Virus record (IMG/VR): IMGVR_UViG_3300045988_073964 | Span: 1 to 45,829 of that record | Direction: 5' to 3' (one strand) | DNA from: a virus | Length of the DNA: 45,829 nucleotides | Shown here: piece after piece, positions 3,282 to 44,759 of the stretch | Position numbering within the stretch: position 1 is the first letter of the stretch | Layout: each line of letters starts with the position of its first letter | Program-made: the position numbers and the translations under genes | Notes under the pieces: generated by a model | What the model was told of the DNA's origin: nothing | Database searches by the model: none | The model's input: the letters and a program-made list of their open reading frames with translations, nothing else

Positions 3282-3404
3282 GTGGAATTTTTTCAATCTA
3301 ACTTTTTCCAGATATTCGTTCTTGTAACCAGCGGATTATTTTGTGGTTTCGCCCTGGTTCTGGTCTTTGCGTTCGTCGTTGGACTCGCTCGAGAATTGCT
3401 TTAA
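3282..3404 (+). CDS. Small hydrophobic protein (40 aa from the GTG; the ORF is open from ATG 3192)
   Basis: AAGGGGG SD 7 nt before GTG 3282. VEFFQSNFFQIFVLVTSGLFCGFALVLVFAFVVGLARELL. ATG 3192 lies about 7 nt after the -10 element, so a leaderless start is possible. Confidence 0.3.
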   Translation: MEFFQSNFFQIFVLVTSGLFCGFALVLVFAFVVGLARELL

Positions 3405-32554: not shown

Positions 32555-35500
32555 ATGGAACTAGCAGAATTAGATAAAGAATTTAATCAAAGAGTACAAG
32601 AAAAGCAAAATTGGTATAATGGCGGGTACGCAAGAGACGTACAGAGCAATTTAACACCGCCGGAAGTGTTTGGCTTTATTGAAGAGCAAAAAACGGCTCA
32701 GCAGGAAGCAGCAGAAACACGAGGTTTTGGCACAGCGATGCTGAACGGTGTAAAAGGCAGTGTTCGCGGACTTTTAGGCGCTGCTAAGGCATTGGTAGAT
32801 TCTAATATCGCGGAGCATGAAAGGGAAGACCCTAACTACCGTCCATACGGAGATTTCAGCGGCACTTTGCAGACTGGCATAGATTACTTACAGCGCGAAG
32901 AAGTGAAGGCTGACAGCGCTGCAGGGCAGCTCGTGTATGACTTGACGGAGGGCGCAGTGCAGCTTGCGATGCAGGCGGCAGTAACAGCCGCTACGGGCGG
33001 CACAGCTGGCGCTGTATATATGGGCGCTAATATTGCCGGCGACCAATATATAGAGCTACGTAAAGAGGGTGTTGACGCAGAGAGGGCTGCGCTAGCAGGC
33101 TTGATGAACGCTCCTTTTCAGGCCGCACTTGAAAAAATTGGTATGGGCAAAATCATGGCGAAGCTGCCAGCAGGCTCAGGATTAAAAAAGAAGCTGGGCG
33201 AAGTCTTAAAAGCTAGTCTTGAAGAAGGCGTTACCGAAGGCCTGCAAGAATTACCGGAACAGGTTACAAATATCTGGGCGAAGGACAAAAATGCCACGGC
33301 GGAAAGCATGGCGGCGAAATGGGGCGAGAACTGGGAGCAGAATGTCAAAGAAGCAGGGTATAGTGCGTTGCTTGGCGGCATTCTTGGCGGCAGCGCTAAG
33401 GGATTGCATATAATAGCTAATAGTGTTGGGCGTAAGGTTGGCGAAAAAGTAACCGAAGTAAAAAAAGAGCAGCTTGTAGCTGATGCAGAGCGCGTAGCTA
33501 AGAGCGGAGTGAACCCTGAATACGCCGCTGCGCTCATTGATGCTAATAGTCAAGGCGAGACTGTAACCGTGCAGGCTGCTGACCTGAACGCATTTAAACA
33601 GCAGACCAACGGTGCGAAGTTGATGGAAACGCTGGGCGTGACGGAAGAACAGATTGAGCAGGCGACCGAGAACGGGCAGGATATTGATATTAGCAGAGGA
33701 CGCTTTACTGCCGCTATGGTTGAACATAAGGGCCTGTATGAAGCGACTAAGGATAGCATGATTTTCGACATTGACGGCGACCTGTCTACAAATGCCGCAG
33801 AGAATTTCAAGACGCTGAAAGCTGATACGAAAGTATCGGATGAGCAGATGCAACAGTTGGATTTAGAGGTTAAGAATGTTGTTGATAGCGCGATTGCCGC
33901 AGGCATGAACAAGGCTCACGCCGAGAATTTGCAGCTCATGCTTGAAAGCAGGGCGATTATTGCTAGTCCTGAAAATCCTGCTGCGTGGCTGCAAAAAAAC
34001 AAACTGCGGTTTGAAAATGGTGGAAAGAAGCCACTTAAAAGCGGTTGGTTTAGCCAAAGCGGTAAGCTGAATACCGACAAATTTTTTACTACTCAAATTA
34101 CAGGTAATGAATTGGGTAGTTATCGTGATTTAAAAGATTTGCGTTCTAAAGCGATAAATTGGTATAGAACAAATTTGCAGGGGCAGAAAGTAAAAAATAG
34201 CGTATTAGGTGAAATTAGAATAGGCAAGGGTTTTTCTGAAAATGACGTTGGACTTACTGGCAGCGGCAGACGCAAAATGTCTTCTACCAGCGCTAAGGCT
34301 GAAAAACTGCTTGCTGTGCGTTACCTTAAAGAAATTATTGAGGGCGGCAATTTTGTAACTGAAGCTGCTGCGCATAAAGAAAAACATTCAGGAGAGAATT
34401 TTTATTATATTCATTCTCTACTGAATGTGAATGGCGAAAATCGTTATGTAGTTGTAACCGTGAGAGAATTAAACAATAAAGAGCTTGTTTATTACAATCA
34501 CAATGTGTTTACTGAAAATGAGTATAAAAAAACAGAGGACGCGCTTAGGCCCTCGGATTCTGCAATTTCAAATGCGGGCCAGTATCCTAAGCAACAATCC
34601 TCTTTTAAAGATAGTGTAACACAAAAAGCGGACGTTTACAAGTCGCAAACGATAATAAACGGCACACTAAAGGATAAAGGCATGATTTCTCCGATGGAAA
34701 ACGGAGACTATATTATCACTTTATTCAAGGACGCAGACGCAAGTACGGTTATCCACGAGACAGGTCATTACTTTGTCGATACAATGATTAACGAGGCTAT
34801 TGCAGACCCTAGTAATACTAGATTGGTTAAAGACGCAAAAATACTGTTAGAGTACGGCGGTATGACGCTGGAACAATGGAAGAGTTCTAGTCTTGAAGAA
34901 AAGCGCGCTGCCCACGAGAAACTTGCAGAAGGCTTTGAAACCTACATCATGGAGGGTAAAGCGCCTAGCGCTGGACTGCGCAAGGCCTTTCAACGATTTG
35001 CAAAATGGCTGACGGCTATTTACTCTAAAATTGCACGCAACGAAAATGCTGCGGACATCAACGACGATGTGCGTGGAGTATTCGACCGTATGCTAGCAAG
35101 TCAAGAAGAAATAGAGATGCAGGCTAAGTTAAACGGTATGTTTAACGAATTGCCGTCGGAACTTACTAGCAAGCTGCCGCCAGAAGCTAAAAATGCCTTG
35201 CTGGATAAAATAAGCAAGGCGAAGGATAAGGCTGTAGATATTCTCACAAGGGAGATGATGAAAAATTTCAACGCAGAGCGCAGGGCCGCCAAGGCTGCGT
35301 ATATTGCAGAAATTACGCCTGAGATTGAAGAGCTTATTCATCGCGATAAGGTTAATCAAGGCAGGGACTTATTGGCGTACCATTTCGGCGGGGAAAAGGA
35401 AAAGAACAATCCGTATTTTAAAGATGAGAACGGCAAAGCTCATGCTAACAAGCCTATTAAAGTACACAGAGATGCCAATCCATCTATCATTGCGCGTAAA

Positions 35501-38500
35501 TACCGCCACGCTATTGGCAGCGTCTTGCCCAACTACAACGACGTGCTGCAAGATACCAGAGCAGCTATCAATGACAGGCTGAATCCCATTATCGAAGATT
35601 TGAAAAATAGCATTGTTGAATACAACGAAAGTCTTAGAGACGCGTGGGCGCAGGGTGGTGCAGAAGGATACTGGACGCTTGAAGGCAAAAGCATAGACCC
35701 TACAATCATCAAAGACTATGTGAAAGCTAACGGCGGAAAGTACGATGATAACGTTAGGGCAAAACTTGAAAGAGACGGCTATGTGTTTCATCCGGCAGAC
35801 GAAGAAGTGTCGGGCGGCAACTGGTACAGGAATTATGTAGAGGAAAACGGTAAAAAGAAACTTTCAAACAAAGAACTCGAAAGAATTGCACGAGATATTT
35901 ATTCTGGCAATGATTATTATGAGTATGACCCCGAAGCAAAAATGTATGAGGGAAACCCAGAATACGAAGCAGAGATACAAAACAAAAAGGCCGAACTGGA
36001 TGAACTGTATAGACTCAAAGAGAAGCTTGAAAAAACGCCCGAAGGTGTAGACCTTGTGGAGATGTCCAAGCGCAGCGCTTTGTCCGATGAGCAACGTGTA
36101 CTGTTTGAAACCATTGCTGAGGAAGTCGGGTATTCCAGCGGTGATGAAATGGCGCAGGATATTTTAAGTAAACCGTCAGAACGTCAGATGGTGCGTAACT
36201 TTGTCAACGAAGCAGTACAGGCACGTTTTCCTGATATTTACGCAGAGCGTGCGCTGACGGAAGAGAAAGCGCGTGAAGCATTGTACAACGACGAAAGCGG
36301 CGAGGTTATTGCGCTTGAGCAGCAGCTTATCGAAAGCTACTTAGATGAAGCCGTTGGCCGTCAGGAGCGCAAGCAGGAACGCATGAATATGGCTAAAGCT
36401 ATGAAGCAAAGAGCAGAGGTTGCTGCTAAAAATATTATTCAAAGTATGACTGTTGATGATATTATTAAAGGCAATGGCAGGAAGTTTATGCTGGCTGAAC
36501 GCAGGGCAGCGGCGAACGCCGTTAAAGCTATCAAAGACGGTGATATGGATGCAGCTATGGAATATAAGCGCCAGCAGCTTATTAACCATGAGTTGTACCG
36601 TCAAGCTTTGCAAGTGCGCGGAAAAGTTAAAAGTGCGCAGCGTTTTATTCGGAAAATGGCCAACATGAAGAAAGAAAATTTCGGAACGCAGCAGCATTTC
36701 AACCAGATAGCAAGTCTTTTGGAGCGCATGGGTATTAAACGCAGAGGCTACGACAGAGCAGGAGATAATCAGTTCTTGCTAGCCTATGTCGAAGAAATGC
36801 GTAGCAAATGCGGTGAAATTGTCGATATTCCGGAGTTCGTGCTGAATGAAAGCAATGACATATCCAGTCCGTCGAATCTGCTTTTCTCGCAGTATCAGGA
36901 CGTTATCAACGCTATGAAGAATATTTATGCTATTGCCAAATATGACACGAGAATGAGCAAGATGAGCAAAGAGCAAACCTTTGCTGAAACTAAGCGCGAC
37001 ATTATGGAGCATCTGCGAGAGCTTGACGACGTATATACTCCGCGTATGGGCGGCGATAGGAAGAAAGGCTTTATTAAAGGCTTTACAGACAGCATAAAGG
37101 ACTATAGAAATGTTTTGCGAAACGCTGACAACTTCTACCTTGCTATGGATAATTGGACGGACGGATATTTCACGAAAAACTGGTACGACACACTCAGCCA
37201 TTGCGCGGATGCAGAAGCTACTATGACGTTGGAATATCAGGACAAATTAGCTACAGCCTTGAAGAAATGGGAGCCGGATAAAGCGACGGCAAAAGCGCAT
37301 GACGCTGATGTGTATTACGAAGAACTCGGAACCAGTACCGACAAAAATACACTTGTCACTATGCTTTGCAATTTGGGCAATGAGGGCAATAAGAATCGCT
37401 TGTGCAGCACGCCGCCAGAGGGAGCAAAAAACTCTAAGTTGTGGGTTAAGGAGTCAGCGCTTGTCTCTAAAGAGCAGGCTATCGAAATGACACACCAGAA
37501 CATTGTAGAGTTTTTGAGCAAATATTTGACTAAGGCTGATGTTGAATATGCGCAGGCGCGTATAGATGCAGCAAATGCCTACTATCCGCAAATCAGGGAT
37601 TTAAATATCCGCGCTAAAGGCTTTGCCCCACCGGCAGTAGATGCTACGCCGATGACGATGAAGCTTGCTGACGGAAGTGTGGTTTTGTTCAAAGGCGGCT
37701 ATTTCCCACTCGTGCGCGACAGCAGAATGGGCAGTGCGCCGAACGGACAGAACAGGCTCAGCGCTACGGATGAATATCCGGGCGCAGGTATTAGCACGAT
37801 GCGGACAGATGCTGCCAGCAGCAAGGGACGTATTGGCGGCAACTATCCGGTTAAATTAGACCGTGGCTGTGAGATTACGCCTATTATGGATACTATCCAT
37901 GATATTTGCTATCGTGAAGCTATGATGGACTTCCGCAAGATTTTGAACGATGCAGAGATTTTTGCAGAGCTTAAAACTAAGCTTGGTGAGCAGAATGTGC
38001 GTCTGCTGCGTGAACAACTGGAAGCGTGCGCTAATCCGTACAGCAACAAGCAGGCTGCGCAGGCCGAAAAAATATTCTCTAAGACAGCGGACATCTTGCG
38101 CAGGACGGCTACGAACGGCGCTATCATGTTAAACTTAAAGACCGCGGCGCAGAACTTCAGCAACATCTTGCTATACGGAAACAGCGTTGAAGGATTTACG
38201 CACGCAGATGCTTTCCGCGCTATGTCACGTGCGTTCAGCGTACAGGGCAGAGCTGATGTTGATGCTATCTGCCGCAAGAGCGCCTTTATGCGTGAGCGCA
38301 TGGAAACGCCAGACGTGGCCTTGAATGACATAAAGAACCGCAAGGATTTGAATGTTGTTGAACGCAACACGTTGAAGTACGGCGCTAGGCTGCTTGGCTA
38401 CACTGATATGCTGACAGCGAAGCCGGTATTCGCAGAGGCCTACATGAAGAAAATCAACGAAGGTGCAAGCGAACAGGCAGCAATAGACTTTGCTAACCGT

Positions 38501-39196
38501 GTTGTTCGTCGCACGCTGGGCAGCAGCAGAATGCAGGACGTATCAAGCTTGCAGCGTGGCAGCAAATTGTTTAGACTCTTTACGATGTTTCAGGGCTTCT
38601 TCAATACGCAGTTTAACCAGTGGGATAGAGAATATCACATCGTGCGTAAGCTGTGGAACGACGGCGAAAAGAAAGAGATGATAGAACGCCTAATAGCTTT
38701 TGTCAGCGCTAAATTCTTGGGCGCGTGCCTGATGAACGTTGCGATAGCAGAGCTTTCCTTAACAGCGCCTTTTGAAAAGGATAAGGACGGCTATCGTAAA
38801 ATCAGCAAAGAGCTGCTTAACTATCCTATTTCTATGGGTGGACCTATCGGACAATTCTCGAACGTTGCCTTGCAGAATTTGCTCGGCATGAGAAACTACG
38901 GCTATCGCCTGACAGCTACACAAGGTCTGTTAGATAAAGGCCTAACGGTTGCACATCGTGCTGGCGACGCTGCTAGAGGCGAGAAGGACGCAAGCACTTT
39001 GCTTGAGCCTGCTGCTTATACGATTGGCGCGGCATTCGGCGTTCCGGGCGGCGTATTTAACCTGATATTCAACGGCATTGATATTTACGACGGTACTATG
39101 GATGCAGAACTTGCGGACATTATGGGCCGTCGTCCGAAGAATGAGCGCAAGCCAGAAGAACAGCTTGAACTTGAAAAGGAGAGAGAAAAATACTAA
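32555..39196 (+). CDS. Giant (2213 aa) internal virion / DNA-ejection polyvalent protein with a zincin HExxH motif
   Basis: Single uninterrupted ORF. VIHETGHYF at 34754..34768. The N-terminus is Ala/Gly-rich and helical. Its position is equivalent to T7 gp16. Confidence 0.8.
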   Translation: MELAELDKEFNQRVQEKQNWYNGGYARDVQSNLTPPEVFGFIEEQKTAQQEAAETRGFGTAMLNGVKGSVRGLLGAAKALVDSNIAEHEREDPNYRPYGDFSGTLQTGIDYLQREEVKADSAAGQLVYDLTEGAVQLAMQAAVTAATGGTAGAVYMGANIAGDQYIELRKEGVDAERAALAGLMNAPFQAALEKIGMGKIMAKLPAGSGLKKKLGEVLKASLEEGVTEGLQELPEQVTNIWAKDKNATAESMAAKWGENWEQNVKEAGYSALLGGILGGSAKGLHIIANSVGRKVGEKVTEVKKEQLVADAERVAKSGVNPEYAAALIDANSQGETVTVQAADLNAFKQQTNGAKLMETLGVTEEQIEQATENGQDIDISRGRFTAAMVEHKGLYEATKDSMIFDIDGDLSTNAAENFKTLKADTKVSDEQMQQLDLEVKNVVDSAIAAGMNKAHAENLQLMLESRAIIASPENPAAWLQKNKLRFENGGKKPLKSGWFSQSGKLNTDKFFTTQITGNELGSYRDLKDLRSKAINWYRTNLQGQKVKNSVLGEIRIGKGFSENDVGLTGSGRRKMSSTSAKAEKLLAVRYLKEIIEGGNFVTEAAAHKEKHSGENFYYIHSLLNVNGENRYVVVTVRELNNKELVYYNHNVFTENEYKKTEDALRPSDSAISNAGQYPKQQSSFKDSVTQKADVYKSQTIINGTLKDKGMISPMENGDYIITLFKDADASTVIHETGHYFVDTMINEAIADPSNTRLVKDAKILLEYGGMTLEQWKSSSLEEKRAAHEKLAEGFETYIMEGKAPSAGLRKAFQRFAKWLTAIYSKIARNENAADINDDVRGVFDRMLASQEEIEMQAKLNGMFNELPSELTSKLPPEAKNALLDKISKAKDKAVDILTREMMKNFNAERRAAKAAYIAEITPEIEELIHRDKVNQGRDLLAYHFGGEKEKNNPYFKDENGKAHANKPIKVHRDANPSIIARKYRHAIGSVLPNYNDVLQDTRAAINDRLNPIIEDLKNSIVEYNESLRDAWAQGGAEGYWTLEGKSIDPTIIKDYVKANGGKYDDNVRAKLERDGYVFHPADEEVSGGNWYRNYVEENGKKKLSNKELERIARDIYSGNDYYEYDPEAKMYEGNPEYEAEIQNKKAELDELYRLKEKLEKTPEGVDLVEMSKRSALSDEQRVLFETIAEEVGYSSGDEMAQDILSKPSERQMVRNFVNEAVQARFPDIYAERALTEEKAREALYNDESGEVIALEQQLIESYLDEAVGRQERKQERMNMAKAMKQRAEVAAKNIIQSMTVDDIIKGNGRKFMLAERRAAANAVKAIKDGDMDAAMEYKRQQLINHELYRQALQVRGKVKSAQRFIRKMANMKKENFGTQQHFNQIASLLERMGIKRRGYDRAGDNQFLLAYVEEMRSKCGEIVDIPEFVLNESNDISSPSNLLFSQYQDVINAMKNIYAIAKYDTRMSKMSKEQTFAETKRDIMEHLRELDDVYTPRMGGDRKKGFIKGFTDSIKDYRNVLRNADNFYLAMDNWTDGYFTKNWYDTLSHCADAEATMTLEYQDKLATALKKWEPDKATAKAHDADVYYEELGTSTDKNTLVTMLCNLGNEGNKNRLCSTPPEGAKNSKLWVKESALVSKEQAIEMTHQNIVEFLSKYLTKADVEYAQARIDAANAYYPQIRDLNIRAKGFAPPAVDATPMTMKLADGSVVLFKGGYFPLVRDSRMGSAPNGQNRLSATDEYPGAGISTMRTDAASSKGRIGGNYPVKLDRGCEITPIMDTIHDICYREAMMDFRKILNDAEIFAELKTKLGEQNVRLLREQLEACANPYSNKQAAQAEKIFSKTADILRRTATNGAIMLNLKTAAQNFSNILLYGNSVEGFTHADAFRAMSRAFSVQGRADVDAICRKSAFMRERMETPDVALNDIKNRKDLNVVERNTLKYGARLLGYTDMLTAKPVFAEAYMKKINEGASEQAAIDFANRVVRRTLGSSRMQDVSSLQRGSKLFRLFTMFQGFFNTQFNQWDREYHIVRKLWNDGEKKEMIERLIAFVSAKFLGACLMNVAIAELSLTAPFEKDKDGYRKISKELLNYPISMGGPIGQFSNVALQNLLGMRNYGYRLTATQGLLDKGLTVAHRAGDAARGEKDASTLLEPAAYTIGAAFGVPGGVFNLIFNGIDIYDGTMDAELADIMGRRPKNERKPEEQLELEKEREKY

Positions 39197-41753: not shown

Positions 41754-41789
41754 ATATCAGCGACAAAACAAATAGGAATGAGGTGTTTT

Positions 41790-42104
41790 ATGATTGAATC
41801 AACTGTACAAACTGTAATAAATATTATTGCTGGTGCTGTTATCTCTTATCTTTTTGCTTTGTATCGCCAGAAGAAAAAAGAGAATGACGCATTAAAGGCA
41901 GGCTTACAAGCGTTGCTGAGGGACAGAATTATCCAGGCGTACAACCATTACTGCGACGATAAGAAGTGGATTCCCATTTACGCTTTAGAAAGCATCAACG
42001 CTTGCTACAAGAGCTATGAAGCTCTTGGCGAGAACGGAGTTATAAACGGCTTAATGGAACAGCTTAACGACCTGCCTAACTATGAGCCGCATCAGAAAGG
42101 ATAA
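41790..42104 (+). CDS. Membrane-anchored protein (holin/lysis-associated candidate)
   Basis: GAGGTG SD before ATG 41790. Single N-terminal TM segment INIIAGAVISYLFALY. Confidence 0.4.
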   Translation: MIESTVQTVINIIAGAVISYLFALYRQKKKENDALKAGLQALLRDRIIQAYNHYCDDKKWIPIYALESINACYKSYEALGENGVINGLMEQLNDLPNYEPHQKG

Positions 42105-42108
42105 GCAA

Positions 42109-42342
42109 ATGAAGAAGCTATTAAATATGCTAAAGAAGGACGAGAACACGTTGAGCATCGGCAGACTGTGTGCTGTGTTGGCGTTTATCTTGTTCTGCGT
42201 AATTTCTCTTTACCTTGCGTTTTTTGTAAAAACGTGGGGCAATTATGAAGCCTTTGCTATGGCTTGCGTATCTTTTATGCTTGCGCAGCTTGGCAACAAG
42301 TATGTAGAGACTAAAGCCATGAAAGTGAAGAACGACGAGTAA
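42109..42342 (+). CDS. Two-TM holin-like protein
   Basis: 77 aa with two hydrophobic helices and a charged C-terminus. Confidence 0.45.
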   Translation: MKKLLNMLKKDENTLSIGRLCAVLAFILFCVISLYLAFFVKTWGNYEAFAMACVSFMLAQLGNKYVETKAMKVKNDE

Positions 42343-42466: not shown

Positions 42467-42561
42467 ACACATATTTAACACACATTTTAGAAGATAAGCA
42501 ACAACTTAACAAAACAACTAAAATGTGAAATCAAGAAGTGAAAATCAAAGGAGTGATAATA

Positions 42562-42852
42562 ATGATTATTACAGGTATGGCGCATTTTGAATCCGTATGT
42601 AAAAACAAATTAGTGGAGTGGTATAACCAATCTCCCAACATCCATAATGGCCCGAATGACGTTCAGCCCATCACATTAGAGAATGTCTATGTGGTTTGGG
42701 CGTGCAAGACGTTGCAGAACTACAAGGCGTTGTTATCAACTACCGTGAGCGGTGATGGCATTTATGTCGAATATACCTATAACGGCGACAAGCAAGAAAT
42801 GTATGAGGACGTATACAAGAAGGTTTCTAACCGTTGCTTAAAAAGCGAGTGA
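42562..42852 (+). CDS. Hypothetical protein
   Basis: AAAGGAG SD before ATG 42562. 96 aa. Confidence 0.55.
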   Translation: MIITGMAHFESVCKNKLVEWYNQSPNIHNGPNDVQPITLENVYVVWACKTLQNYKALLSTTVSGDGIYVEYTYNGDKQEMYEDVYKKVSNRCLKSE

Positions 42853-42862
42853 GGTGATAGCT

Positions 42863-43480
42863 ATGGACTGGAATAAAGCATTAGCAAGAGAAATTGCTAA
42901 AGGTATTATCGCGACAGGAATCGAGGGCGACTTTGACAGCGTGGCAAAAAGCACCGCCTACGCCTATCCGTCAATCGGTGTGAGCCAATGGGAAGGCAAC
43001 AGAGCCGATGCGCTTTTAAGAGCTATTCCAGGCGGTGAAGAATTTGTTGGACGAACATACATCGACATTAAGGCAAGCGGCGAGTTGCCGATGCTGAAAG
43101 AGCTGCTTAGAAGCGACGCAGGTAAACAGGCAGCACTTGACCAGCTTTCTCGCGATTGTTTGCAGTACGTCGAAGTCTTGCAGCAAGTACCGACGTTAGA
43201 CGACACACGCTGCATTATTTATGCCGGTATGTGGTGTCCTACGTCAACCTACGTCGTAAAGCGTTTTCTGGAGAATCGCTTTGAGCGCGTAGACTTGCGT
43301 AGCCTTGAAGCGTTGAACAAACTGTTCAAACATTATTACTTTATTGCTGCAGACGTTGGCGAGATGTATAGAGCTGGTTATGCCAACAGAGCGGACAATA
43401 CATATCAGTATGTTGCTGGTATTGATTTGACTACACCATACGGCGTACCTGCTTATGGCTATGCTGGTAATGGAAGATAA
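42863..43480 (+). CDS. Possible endolysin (lysozyme-like), weakly supported
   Basis: Its position in the lysis region, plus an early acidic motif GIEGDFDSV...SIGVSQWEGNRA. No canonical family motif recognised. Confidence 0.3.
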   Translation: MDWNKALAREIAKGIIATGIEGDFDSVAKSTAYAYPSIGVSQWEGNRADALLRAIPGGEEFVGRTYIDIKASGELPMLKELLRSDAGKQAALDQLSRDCLQYVEVLQQVPTLDDTRCIIYAGMWCPTSTYVVKRFLENRFERVDLRSLEALNKLFKHYYFIAADVGEMYRAGYANRADNTYQYVAGIDLTTPYGVPAYGYAGNGR

Positions 43481-43493
43481 GGAGGAAATCAAA

Positions 43494-43751
43494 ATGAAAA
43501 AGTATATTGGTTGCAAATGTGTAGAAGCAGAACCGTGTAAAGCATGGAAAGAAATGGGCACTCACAAAATCGGGGAAGACGGCTATAAGGTTGCTTATCC
43601 CGACGGCTATGTTACATGGTCTCCGAAAGATGTTTTTGAAGCGGCATATGTTGAAACTCCCGAGAGTGTTGCACAAGATGTTTTGCGTGATTGTACGAAG
43701 CAGATTGTTTTAGGAGTGGTAGTTGCCGGGGCCTTAGAAAACTTGAAATAA
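43494..43751 (+). CDS. Hypothetical protein with a C-terminal hydrophobic segment
   Basis: AAGGAGG SD. EDGYKVAYPDGYVTWSPKDVFEAAY is a conserved phage motif of unknown function. Confidence 0.55.
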   Translation: MKKYIGCKCVEAEPCKAWKEMGTHKIGEDGYKVAYPDGYVTWSPKDVFEAAYVETPESVAQDVLRDCTKQIVLGVVVAGALENLK

Positions 43752-43764
43752 TGGAGGAATTATC

Positions 43765-43863
43765 ATGGAAAAATTAAAAGCATTTGTTGCTGATAAGAGA
43801 TTTTTAGTAGGTCTTGTTTTAGGCTTTATTTTAGGTGCGTTGCACCATTTTTACGGCTTATAA
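43765..43863 (+). CDS. Small single-TM protein (32 aa)
   Basis: GGAGG SD 8 nt upstream. MEKLKAFVADKRFLVGLVLGFILGALHHFYGL. Confidence 0.45.
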   Translation: MEKLKAFVADKRFLVGLVLGFILGALHHFYGL

Positions 43864-43874
43864 TCGAGGTAAAA

Positions 43875-44285
43875 ATGACAAATGAGACGAGACGTAAAAT
43901 TGACAAGGCTGTTAAAATCAGCCTTATTATTGCTGGCCTTTTACTTATCTGCAATGACGTGTACTGGCGTTGGCACAGCGGAAGCAGCTCCGCAGCAGAT
44001 AACAATGTCACTAGCACAGTGGAATCAATTCAAAGAGCAAACGAATCTGCTAGAAGCGAAATTGAGTCTGGTAGACGAGAAGTTGAAGCAGCAAAAGAGC
44101 ACGTCAAAAGAGCTGCTGACGCAGTTGGACGAAGCACAGAAGCAGCTCAGGCTAACGCAAGAAGCACTGACGAACTCCAATCGCTCATTAGCGAATGTCA
44201 GGGAATCGTTGAAGCGCAGCGAGGACTTATACAAGACATTGACCAGGAAAATGGAATCGGAGAACAGGAAGAACCGCAGGGTTAA
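43875..44285 (+). CDS. i-spanin-like protein (N-terminal TM plus periplasmic coiled coil)
   Basis: ISLIIAGLLLICNDVYW TM segment followed by a helical, charged domain. GAGG SD 5 nt upstream. Confidence 0.5.
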   Translation: MTNETRRKIDKAVKISLIIAGLLLICNDVYWRWHSGSSSAADNNVTSTVESIQRANESARSEIESGRREVEAAKEHVKRAADAVGRSTEAAQANARSTDELQSLISECQGIVEAQRGLIQDIDQENGIGEQEEPQG

Positions 44286-44349
44286 GTACCAGCGTAATAT
44301 TTACGCAGGATGTGCGATATTTGCTATTGCGTATGCTGTTGCAAAATAA
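43882..44349 (+). CDS. Overlapping +1-frame ORF: signal peptide, coiled coil, C-terminal TM (spanin-like)
   Basis: LLKSALLLLAFYLSAMTCTGVGTAEA-AP is signal-like. The body has Leu heptads. C-terminal IYAGCAIFAIAYAVAK. It uses many AGG codons, which are rare elsewhere in the genome. Confidence 0.4.
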   Translation: MRRDVKLTRLLKSALLLLAFYLSAMTCTGVGTAEAAPQQITMSLAQWNQFKEQTNLLEAKLSLVDEKLKQQKSTSKELLTQLDEAQKQLRLTQEALTNSNRSLANVRESLKRSEDLYKTLTRKMESENRKNRRVKYQRNIYAGCAIFAIAYAVAK

Positions 44350-44356
44350 AACACGG

Positions 44357-44512
44357 ATGACGGATGGTGGAATGATGGAAGAAAAGGAACTAGTCCCCGC
44401 TGGTCTAGTAACAATGCTGCTGACCGGCTATCTTAGAACAATTTATATTATGGCAGCAGGCTGGGTGTTGACCACAGTTGCGCTGCTTGGGTACATATTT
44501 TTGAGTAGGTGA
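44357..44512 (+). CDS. Small membrane protein
   Basis: Two hydrophobic segments. The start is uncertain (ATG at 44357, 44372 or 44375). Confidence 0.35.
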   Translation: MTDGGMMEEKELVPAGLVTMLLTGYLRTIYIMAAGWVLTTVALLGYIFLSR

Positions 44513-44519
44513 TAACAAC

Positions 44520-44759
44520 ATGAATGAGATGCTACGAAAGACGCGCGAATGGCTGAACTGTTCAACGCGACGGTCTTTCAGTGCGGTTCTCCATGAAGCA
44601 AAAATTACGCCGCGCCAGACGCAGATTTGTGAGCTAAAATTTGTAAAAGGCTTGACCAATTACCAGATAGCAGCAGAGCTGAATGTATCTGACAAGACGA
44701 TAGAAAAGGAATTAAACCGTGCTTATAAAAGCATTACAAATGTTTTAAAATCCCTCTAA
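44520..44759 (+). CDS. Sigma70 region-4 / LuxR-type HTH protein
   Basis: ITPRQTQICELKFVKGLTNYQIAAELNVSDKTIEKELNRA. Confidence 0.65.
   Translation: MNEMLRKTREWLNCSTRRSFSAVLHEAKITPRQTQICELKFVKGLTNYQIAAELNVSDKTIEKELNRAYKSITNVLKSL

Follow-up and report, generated by a model that had tools for sequence, protein, structure and literature searches.

In two-component spanins, the i-spanin is an integral inner-membrane protein with an N-terminal transmembrane (TM) segment and a periplasmic, largely coiled-coil domain, and the o-spanin is an outer-membrane lipoprotein that has a lipobox and an invariant cysteine; the two genes are neighbors, overlap, or lie one inside the other within the lysis cassette of a phage whose host possesses an outer membrane (Kongari et al., 2018; PMC6139136). 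For embedded o-spanins, a start point at 0.4–0.5 of the i-spanin length is reported in about 70% of cases (PMC6139136), and periplasmic cysteines for intermolecular disulfides have been called ubiquitous in two-component spanins (PMC6139136). Here we describe a pair of overlapping open reading frames (ORFs), A and B, in a 45,829-nt stretch of viral DNA (positions 1 to 45,829 of IMG/VR virus record IMGVR_UViG_3300045988_073964, hereafter the window). As in lambda Rz/Rz1 (an embedded two-component spanin) and P2 LysB/LysC (an overlapped one), the pair stands last in its lysis cassette, after the endolysin, with the second gene in the +1 frame; the first protein (A) is predicted to have type II topology in the inner membrane and a coiled coil in the periplasm, and the host has an outer membrane. 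Unlike in those systems, B starts within a few bases of A and exceeds it in length. With a second gene that begins at the start of the first and is longer, this arrangement of overlapping, spanin-type lysis genes departs from all catalogued spanin architectures. Judging from sequence comparisons, the region is almost certainly dual-coding, with both frames under selection, and our favored explanation of the whole, held with moderate confidence, is that both frames are translated and that A and B make up a spanin-like, outer-membrane-disrupting pair.

ORF A (43,875..44,285, + strand, ATG start) encodes 136 amino acids (aa), and ORF B (43,882..44,349, +, ATG start), in the +1 frame relative to A, encodes 155 aa. 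Common to both is a Shine-Dalgarno (SD)-like GAGG (43,866..43,869, +), spaced 5 nt from the ATG of A and 12 nt from that of B. The overlap of 404 nt, within a stretch of 475 bases, takes in 98% of A and 86% of B and leaves a B-only tail past A's stop (44,286..44,349, +); the third frame at this locus has at most 34 open codons. The original prediction, made for this stretch from its letters alone, had described two near-full-length overlapping frames sharing one SD in DNA of moderate G+C content, and was accurate on the coordinates, the GAGG and the overlap as well as on G+C (46.3% in the window, 45.5% in the A/B region). It had also called the extent of the overlap unusual, and at 98% of A the overlap is indeed far longer than in known embedded spanins, with their o-spanin starts at 0.4–0.5 (PMC6139136).

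When one protein was held fixed and its synonymous codons were redrawn according to the usage of ten long genes of the window phage, about 10 stops were expected in frame A (B fixed) and about 7 in frame B (A fixed), and the other frame stayed open in 0 of 2000 trials and, in a separate run, in 0 of 1000, in agreement with the earlier judgment that so long an alternative frame is unlikely to be open by chance. Permutation of the pair's own synonymous codons, which already carry the bias of the overlap, gave a probability of 0.0005 for an open A and of 0.04 for an open B. The reality of frame B had been doubted on account of its AGG codons, described as rare elsewhere in the genome. Rare they are (34 of 326 Arg codons, or 10%, in the ten long genes vs. 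6 of 12 in B), but this richness is a cost of the overlap and no argument against B, and the doubt did not survive analysis, as B has the clearest purifying selection of the two frames and an ordinary coding pattern in its tail (see below). The codon-adaptation score was 0.74 for A and 0.70 for B, the latter composed of 0.69 in the overlap and 0.78 in the non-overlapping tail.

A close group of 62 viral contigs carries the locus, with 40 unique sequences at 66–99.8% nucleotide identity. The two ATG codons are 7 nt apart in all 62 loci, and in the 61 untruncated ones each frame runs open over its full length, save three (L027, L033, and L037; loci are denoted by L numbers) in which A is cut from the otherwise constant 136 aa to 128 aa. 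B has 155 aa in every complete copy except one of 156 aa, which has a 3-nt insertion. Related phages with one frame stopped, proposed earlier as the observation to look for, were therefore absent from the close group but for the last 8 residues of A in these three loci. There, A codon 129 (positions 3385–3387) has changed from CGA to TGA, synonymously in B (TAC to TAT), just past a conserved ANGI motif; the natural stop implies that the variable acidic tail of A is dispensable, as is the variable extreme C terminus of i-spanins (PMC6139136). Protein searches returned 412 relatives of A (the best 120 all of 136 aa) vs. 61 of B (mostly 155 aa), so gene callers evidently choose one frame or the other on different contigs.

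Variability at the codon positions of the close group follows frame A from nt 9 to 120 (A3 0.50 > A1 0.36 > A2 0.11) and frame B from nt 120 on (B3 ~0.6 > B1 and B2 ~0.35), and beyond A's stop it shows a textbook B coding pattern (B3 0.92 > B1 0.51 > B2 0.31). Selection ratios were estimated on the same group by a self-written site-class analysis modelled on OLGenie, with bootstrap, in which the two letters after d denote nonsynonymous (N) or synonymous (S) changes in A and B, respectively. For B, dNN/dNS was ~0.35 in every segment and no bootstrap replicate reached 1 (P < 0.001). The strongest A-specific purifying selection lay in the anchor region (nt 9–120, dNN/dSN 0.17); the A helix gave values of 1.05 and 0.70, which are not significant. 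The comparison of synonymous sites across homologous phages, suggested together with the original prediction, revealed suppressed change: the synonymous difference pS in B was 0.29 (confidence interval [CI] 0.24–0.34) in the overlap vs. 0.485 (CI 0.37–0.61) in the 20-codon tail, as expected if frame A matters. Both this suppression and the codon-usage cost are as expected for overlapping genes. In phiX174, D/E likewise yield two functional proteins, including a lysis protein, from different frames of the same strand; unlike in such long overlaps of small viruses, A and B are similar in size and overlap almost totally, both are predicted to be structured coiled coils instead of a structured protein paired with a disordered one, and the genome is that of a 45-kb tailed phage, with no obvious shortage of space.

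Among 1.84 billion representative proteins, a profile of A matched (E < 0.001) 106 clusters at 50% identity, nearly all of 120–150 aa and matched over most of their length, which marks A as a real and wide protein family. The alignment of all distant A relatives was too divergent for contig scanning; it was split into sub-groups, for which DNA was taken. In all of the ~15 lineages examined, the +1 frame holds a full-length B-like ORF of 147–176 aa (one cut at a contig end), across a range in which identity to the window falls from 59 to 22% for A and from 69 to 23% for B; the third frame has at most 46 open codons. For 14 lineages, 6–14 stops were expected in A given B and 4.7–12.5 in B given A, and the probability of an open frame was at most 0.003. 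Every one of the 15 lineages has a purine-rich motif ahead of whichever start comes first, and ATG, GTG, and TTG are all used as start codons. In L136 (9999–10003) and L116 (1966–1970) a single GGAGG or GGGGG motif precedes the sequence ATGTG, in which the ATG of B and the GTG of A overlap at a distance of 2 nt; as the letters read, one initiating ribosome must choose its frame there. Two nearby starts behind one ribosome-binding site are a likeness to lambda S105/S107, in which they set the ratio of two lysis proteins. Unlike those near-identical proteins of a single frame, A and B are unrelated sequences in different frames, with starts offset by −8 to +34 nt across the lineages.

Since conservation of one protein forces some conservation in the other frame, homology alone proves nothing here, and we therefore ran a shadow test in which both observed proteins of one frame were kept, synonymous codons were redrawn, and identity in the other frame was taken over an unchanged set of aligned columns. 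Under the null, synonymous sites are taken to be saturated and codon usage to be that of the window. In 10 comparisons of the window with a distant lineage, which all share the window sequence and hence are not independent, identity ran at about double the shadow level whichever frame was tested (z = 2.4–8.3). For the A helix alone (residues 44–126) identity was 0.30 vs. 0.15 in the shadow (z = 3.0–6.1 in 10 of 10 comparisons), so that this helix has been constrained over deep time, although the ratio within the close group could not show it. A as a passive shadow of B, or B as one of A, was rejected on the stop simulations together with this excess conservation.

These data bear on two explanations with a single protein. 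In the first, only B is a protein, frame A is passively open through the composition of B's coiled coil, and the A family is a shadow of B. The hydrophobic pattern of A is partly set by the Leu codons of B, the dNN/dSN of the A helix is ~1 in the close group, and a natural stop removes the last 8 residues of A, but none of the 6–14 stops expected in A was seen in any of the 14 lineages, the A start codon and its SD spacing are conserved, the anchor region has the A-type variability given above, A is conserved at twice the shadow level, and synonymous sites of B are suppressed in the overlap; we consider this explanation very improbable. The second, in which only A is a protein and B a chance open frame, draws on the preference of gene callers for A (412 vs. 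61 database proteins) and on the lower codon-adaptation score of B (0.70 vs. 0.74). It is contradicted already, and strikes us as the least credible of all, given a dNN/dNS of 0.35 for B in every segment (bootstrap P < 0.001), a B tail with a normal coding pattern and a conserved hydrophobic end past A's stop, the absence of the 4.7–12.5 stops expected in B given A, and conservation of B at about twice the shadow level.

One further locus differs in build. Relative to L068 (3486–3905), L070 (3456–3938) has a 22-nt deletion that switches frame mid-gene, giving a chimera of the N-terminal half of A and the C-terminal half of B that has a hydrophobic anchor at each end, as well as a truncated B; this could be an assembly error or a natural fused variant. 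Searches of GenBank phages gave no match by tblastn to A, B, or two distant A relatives, and a search with the window DNA gave only a short DUF6275 match.

From its N terminus, A consists of a basic stretch (RRKIDK), a predicted TM segment at residues 12–31 (43,908..43,967, +; AVKISLIIAGLLLICNDVYW; Kyte-Doolittle mean up to 2.56), a short loop, a predicted long helix at residues 44–125 (44,004..44,249, +) with hydrophobic or small residues at 3–4 spacing and a cysteine at 108, and the variable acidic tail. The hydropathy scan found one hydrophobic window (residues 11–31), and the AlphaFold2 (AF2) model has helices at 2–34 and 44–125, with a mean confidence (pLDDT) of 59 and values of ~50–60 in the long helix; low AF2 confidence is usual for isolated coiled coils. 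The anchor-plus-helix architecture is seen in 92 family members. Hydropathy and AF2 thus agree with the earlier reading of frame A as an N-terminal TM segment followed by a charged helical domain, and as modelled, A matches the description of an i-spanin, with an N-terminal TM anchor and a periplasmic, largely coiled-coil domain. In the PHROGs collection, the window A matches phrog_18860, as do 58 of the 92 family members. The only recurrent annotated matches of the family, all of them weak, are to four PHROGs labelled "Rz-like spanin": phrog_89 (11 of the 92), phrog_312 (10, best 4.3e-08), phrog_214 (8), and phrog_739 (6). The window A itself matched no spanin family of Pfam, PHROGs, or NCBIfam (E = 0.77 for TIGR03495 LysB). 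Unlike lambda Rz/Rz1, then, A and B have no significant match to the Pfam Rz families, with weak PHROG "Rz-like spanin" matches for A relatives; at the level of sequence, homology of A to Rz is unproven.

B opens with a predicted Sec-type signal peptide (residues 1–35; 43,882..43,986, +) with a basic n-region, a Leu-rich core, and a cleavage-like AEA/AP site. A coiled coil follows at residues 44–133 (44,011..44,280, +), with a Q(W/Y)NxLK motif, a hinge (QKSTS, 71–75), heptad leucines at 61, 68, 82, 89, 96, 103, and 110, and a basic cluster before the C-terminal anchor, a description supported by invariant alignment columns. The latter is a short, Gly/Ala-rich hydrophobic segment at residues 140–154 (44,299..44,343, +; IYAGCAIFAIAYAVA; hydropathy 2.05) that ends in Lys, the sequence end of B being IYAGCAIFAIAYAVAK. 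The hydropathy scan found two hydrophobic windows (residues 10–30 and 139–154), and the AF2 model (pLDDT 64) has a helix at 4–27, a loop, and helices at 44–70 and 76–154 split at the conserved QKSTS; for both A and B, AF2 gives elongated helices. This build is kept in 14 lineages, with the signal peptide, a T(I/V)xMxxxQ(W/Y)NxLK motif, the heptad leucines, a basic RQR(N/D), and the Gly/Ala-rich hydrophobic end, the last comprising 14–17 hydrophobic residues and then one to few residues usually ending in Lys or Arg in nearly all complete lineages. The features foreseen for frame B, namely a cleavable-looking signal, a Leu-heptad coiled coil, and a C-terminal hydrophobic segment, were thus recovered.

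The one feature of B that did not hold up is the cysteine that the original prediction had pointed out in the signal region (SAMTC; residue 27) as a possible lipobox. It is present in the window and not conserved among relatives: the aligned residue is Phe in L003, L013, L014, and L039, Ser in L117, and Ala in L137, and there is no cysteine near the position in L136 and L067. Where the cysteine exists, the residue before it is often aromatic, a departure from the consensus [LVI][ASTVI][GAS]C. We rejected B as a lipoprotein because other residues take the place of the cysteine in several lineages; its signal, moreover, resembles the signal peptidase I type (AEA/AP). Cysteines elsewhere are scattered, with Cys108 in A of the window group and a cysteine in A, B, or both in other lineages.

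B has been likened to unimolecular spanins, and like T1 gp11 it has ~150 aa, an N-terminal export signal, a C-terminal hydrophobic anchor, and a place at the end of the lysis cassette. Of that likeness the C-terminal hydrophobic segment stands, and the lipoprotein signal, the beta-rich periplasmic domain, and the ability to act alone do not. T1 gp11 needs its lipobox cysteine, has a periplasmic domain predicted to be mainly beta-sheet, and acts alone, whereas the B cysteine is not conserved, B is predicted to be all-helical, and B is always accompanied by A in the other frame. Unlike lambda Rz1, which is short and Pro-rich, B would be a 120-residue coiled coil with a C-terminal hydrophobic segment and no lipoprotein. 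Without a conserved lipobox cysteine, the defining lipoprotein feature of both classes, B is neither a canonical o-spanin nor a canonical u-spanin. A further likeness is to phiKT gp28, an alternative to canonical spanins for the last lysis step that disrupts the outer membrane in a spanin-less phage (bioRxiv 10.1101/515445); it is described as a single cationic antimicrobial peptide, unlike the two anchored coiled-coil proteins predicted here.

Database annotation of the two proteins was of little help. Pfam and NCBIfam matches of A and B were all weak coiled-coil matches below cut-offs, and a scan of a defense-system library (PADLOC) gave no significant match, only coiled-coil noise. B has no PHROG family of its own, because gene callers report only one of the two frames; one B relative matches a PHROG annotated "hemolysin." A few named B copies are labelled "Peptidoglycan endopeptidase" or "EnvC" via coiled-coil similarity, and these source names, together with "ATP synthase b" among relatives of the pair, were discarded as coiled-coil noise.

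The register of the overlap suggests how one stretch of DNA could write both coiled coils. Each B codon k consists of positions 2–3 of A codon k+2 and position 1 of A codon k+3, and the TTR Leu codons of B consequently coincide with NTT-type hydrophobic codons of A (e.g., B L61, L68, L103, and L110 on A I63, V70, I105, and V112). A single 21-nt periodicity in this way encodes the heptad patterns of both proteins, which probably explains why an overlap of full length is sustainable.

The window phage is a temperate tailed phage, with an integrase (471–1571), a T7-type portal (PF12236), and a GP7-type capsid protein, and the A/B pair is located after the tail genes. In Firmicute-type phages, those of Negativicutes included, the lysis module follows the tail genes (bioRxiv 10.1101/606087). 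Upstream of the pair are two small membrane proteins of 108 and 86 aa that are holin candidates (41,778..42,342, +), the first of which has a match to phrog_4105 and a weak one to a holin family; every lineage has two such candidates ahead of the endolysin. In the window cassette, the place of the endolysin is taken by g208 (42,863..43,480, +, 205 aa), which is 83–94% identical in 60 related loci and gave nothing significant in Pfam, PHROGs, NCBIfam, Protein Data Bank (PDB) sequences, or PADLOC. It may represent an undescribed endolysin family; its N-terminal IEGDF...YPSIGVSQWEG bears what we take to be a loose resemblance to lysozyme-like catalytic motifs. In other lineages the gene directly upstream of the pair encodes a single-domain peptidoglycan hydrolase of 171–212 aa without a wall-binding domain, and this is a GH25 enzyme in L116, L118, L125/L139, and L136/L142, an Amidase_3 in L068 and L137, an Amidase_2 in L126, and a VgrG3-like lysozyme (PF21277) in L067, L117, and L135. 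Because the hydrolase family varies among lineages, the pair must have held the last position of the cassette while the enzyme was swapped at least four times. It is also found in larger phages (L139 and L136/L142, contigs of 68–137 kb), whose genes include those for a DNA polymerase III alpha subunit, Rad52, and a primase-helicase, and it thus travels across very different phage backbones. On the strength of this position in the cassette, a lysis role for the pair is well supported, and we consider it likely.

The same context speaks to the possibility that A and B are real but unrelated to lysis, serving, e.g., superinfection exclusion or some other envelope role in lysogenic conversion. The window phage is temperate and has an integrase, genes near the lysis/lysogeny junction are often accessory, and the pair varies faster than the neighboring g208 (56–100 vs. 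83–94% identity). Such a role nevertheless seems improbable to us, as the pair stays directly behind the hydrolase through four changes of hydrolase family, occurs in 70-kb phages with a quite different backbone, and has no significant defense-system match.

A host was assigned for five lineages: Phascolarctobacterium succinatutens for the window group and for the L067 group, an uncultured Phascolarctobacterium sp. for L137, P. faecium for L126, and Megasphaera elsdenii for L136. All five are Negativicutes, from two orders, and none of these lineages has a single-membraned host. Of four genome-collection records with the locus, two are titled Bacilli bacterium (a metagenome-assembled genome) and Escherichia coli (a 7-kb contig from a metagenome bin) and are taken to be mis-binned phage contigs. 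An attempt to place L139 by tblastn of its DnaE was uninformative (at most 34% identity over unrelated hosts). LolA and LolB were not found in any Negativicutes genome (Antunes et al.; PMC5007114), which leaves a textbook lipoprotein o-spanin without a known route to the outer membrane.

We infer that both frames are translated, that A and B form a complex, and that it acts on the outer membrane. A single ribosome-binding site would feed two starts in different frames, yielding two envelope proteins from the same 404 nt. A would be a type II inner-membrane protein whose N-terminal anchor is followed by a periplasmic helix of ~80 residues; B would be exported by its cleavable signal peptide as a hinged, Leu-zipper coiled coil ending in a short, weakly hydrophobic, Gly/Ala-rich segment, which is a candidate for the contact with the outer membrane. 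Together the two may form a periplasm-spanning, spanin-like complex that disrupts the outer membrane once the wall is cut, with A in the i-spanin role, B standing in for the lipoprotein partner, and the pair acting as the last module of a cassette of holin candidates, endolysin, and A/B. The spanin-like role at the outer membrane, taken by itself, is tentative, and we place it slightly short of even confidence.

A bolder version, which we regard as possible but doubtful, is that of a lipoprotein-independent spanin of double-membraned Firmicutes with both subunits encoded over their whole length by the same DNA. In it, matching heptads arising from the 21-nt periodicity would let A and B zip into a heteromeric coiled coil. 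With the anchor of A N-terminal and that of B C-terminal, parallel pairing would put the anchors at opposite ends of a rod of ~12 nm; one would sit in the inner membrane, the end of B would insert into the outer membrane like a fusion peptide, and the rod, on collapsing, would fuse the membranes or rupture them. The A:B stoichiometry would be set by co-translation from one ribosome-binding site.

The main competing explanation keeps both proteins in lysis but confines them to the inner membrane, A anchored N-terminally and B C-terminally, where they would aid or control the step of the holin or endolysin, perhaps as an antiholin-like timer, a PBSX XhlA-like lesion helper, or a factor that detaches the OmpM tether from the wall. 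After Sec export, proteins that carry a hydrophobic segment at the C terminus normally remain in the inner membrane, and mature B, with its coiled coil and C-terminal anchor, has what we take to be an XhlA-like architecture. The single "hemolysin" match of a B relative, the missing lipobox, and the several other small membrane proteins of the cassette point the same way. This explanation has to contend with two holin candidates that already precede the endolysin in every lineage, with the spanin position of the pair, last after the endolysin, with an outer membrane in every known host, with recurrent annotated matches of A that are to Rz-like spanins, and with the lack of any Pfam match to XhlA; we consider it unlikely, if the most serious of the rivals.

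Several observations weigh against a spanin-like pair. By standard Sec logic the C-terminal segment of B would stay in the inner membrane, and the route of B to the outer membrane is unexplained; in addition, the basic cluster lies on the periplasmic side of this segment, contrary to the positive-inside rule, and B has no conserved lipobox cysteine. L118 and L135 have no cysteine in either ectodomain. In Pfam the A family matches generic coiled-coil families and no Rz family, and its Rz-like PHROG matches may reflect only an architecture of anchor plus coiled coil. Three loci lose the last 8 residues of A, the A helix shows no significant constraint within the close group, and most lineages are without a host assignment.

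Further genes flank the pair. A 32-aa single-pass membrane peptide (43,765..43,863, +) lies directly upstream of it in all 62 close loci, and a membrane peptide of 46 aa that has two hydrophobic stretches (44,372–44,512, +) lies downstream in 53 of 62, followed in the window by a 79-aa regulator that has a sigma-70 region 4/GerE-type helix-turn-helix (44,520–44,759, +; Pfam Sigma70_r4_2, 3.4e-08) and matches phage antiterminator Q less strongly (1.3e-04). A similar arrangement of membrane peptide and small regulator follows the cassette in L113 and L137. The cassette also contains two mosaic insertions, placed between the holin candidates, g208, and the pair: a DUF6275 gene (42,538–42,852, +) and an 85-aa gene (43,494–43,751, +), found in only 31 and 9 of 62 related loci, respectively. 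Farther upstream, the window phage encodes a 2213-aa protein with an LPD3 domain (32,555–39,196, +), at the position of which L137 and L138 have a protein of ~4840 aa with SLT, helicase, and LPD38 domains. An HNH endonuclease gene interrupts the DNA polymerase III alpha gene of L136 and L142.

Our literature search found no paper describing this pair or any spanin in Negativicutes phages, and a 2025 survey of lytic proteins, in which o-spanins were filtered by lipobox, never mentions Negativicutes hosts. Essentially no annotated copy of the pair lists both genes, which is thus also an annotation gap. As a case of dual coding it is extreme, with two proteins of 130–170 aa in almost complete overlap kept down to ~22% identity, and it shows how a single periodic DNA template can serve two coiled coils. 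The human gut and mouth commonly harbor Negativicutes (Veillonella, Megasphaera, Phascolarctobacterium, and relatives). A and B are the best candidates so far for outer-membrane breakage by phages of double-membraned Firmicutes, and they offer a concrete, directly testable candidate for how Negativicutes phages pass the outer membrane.

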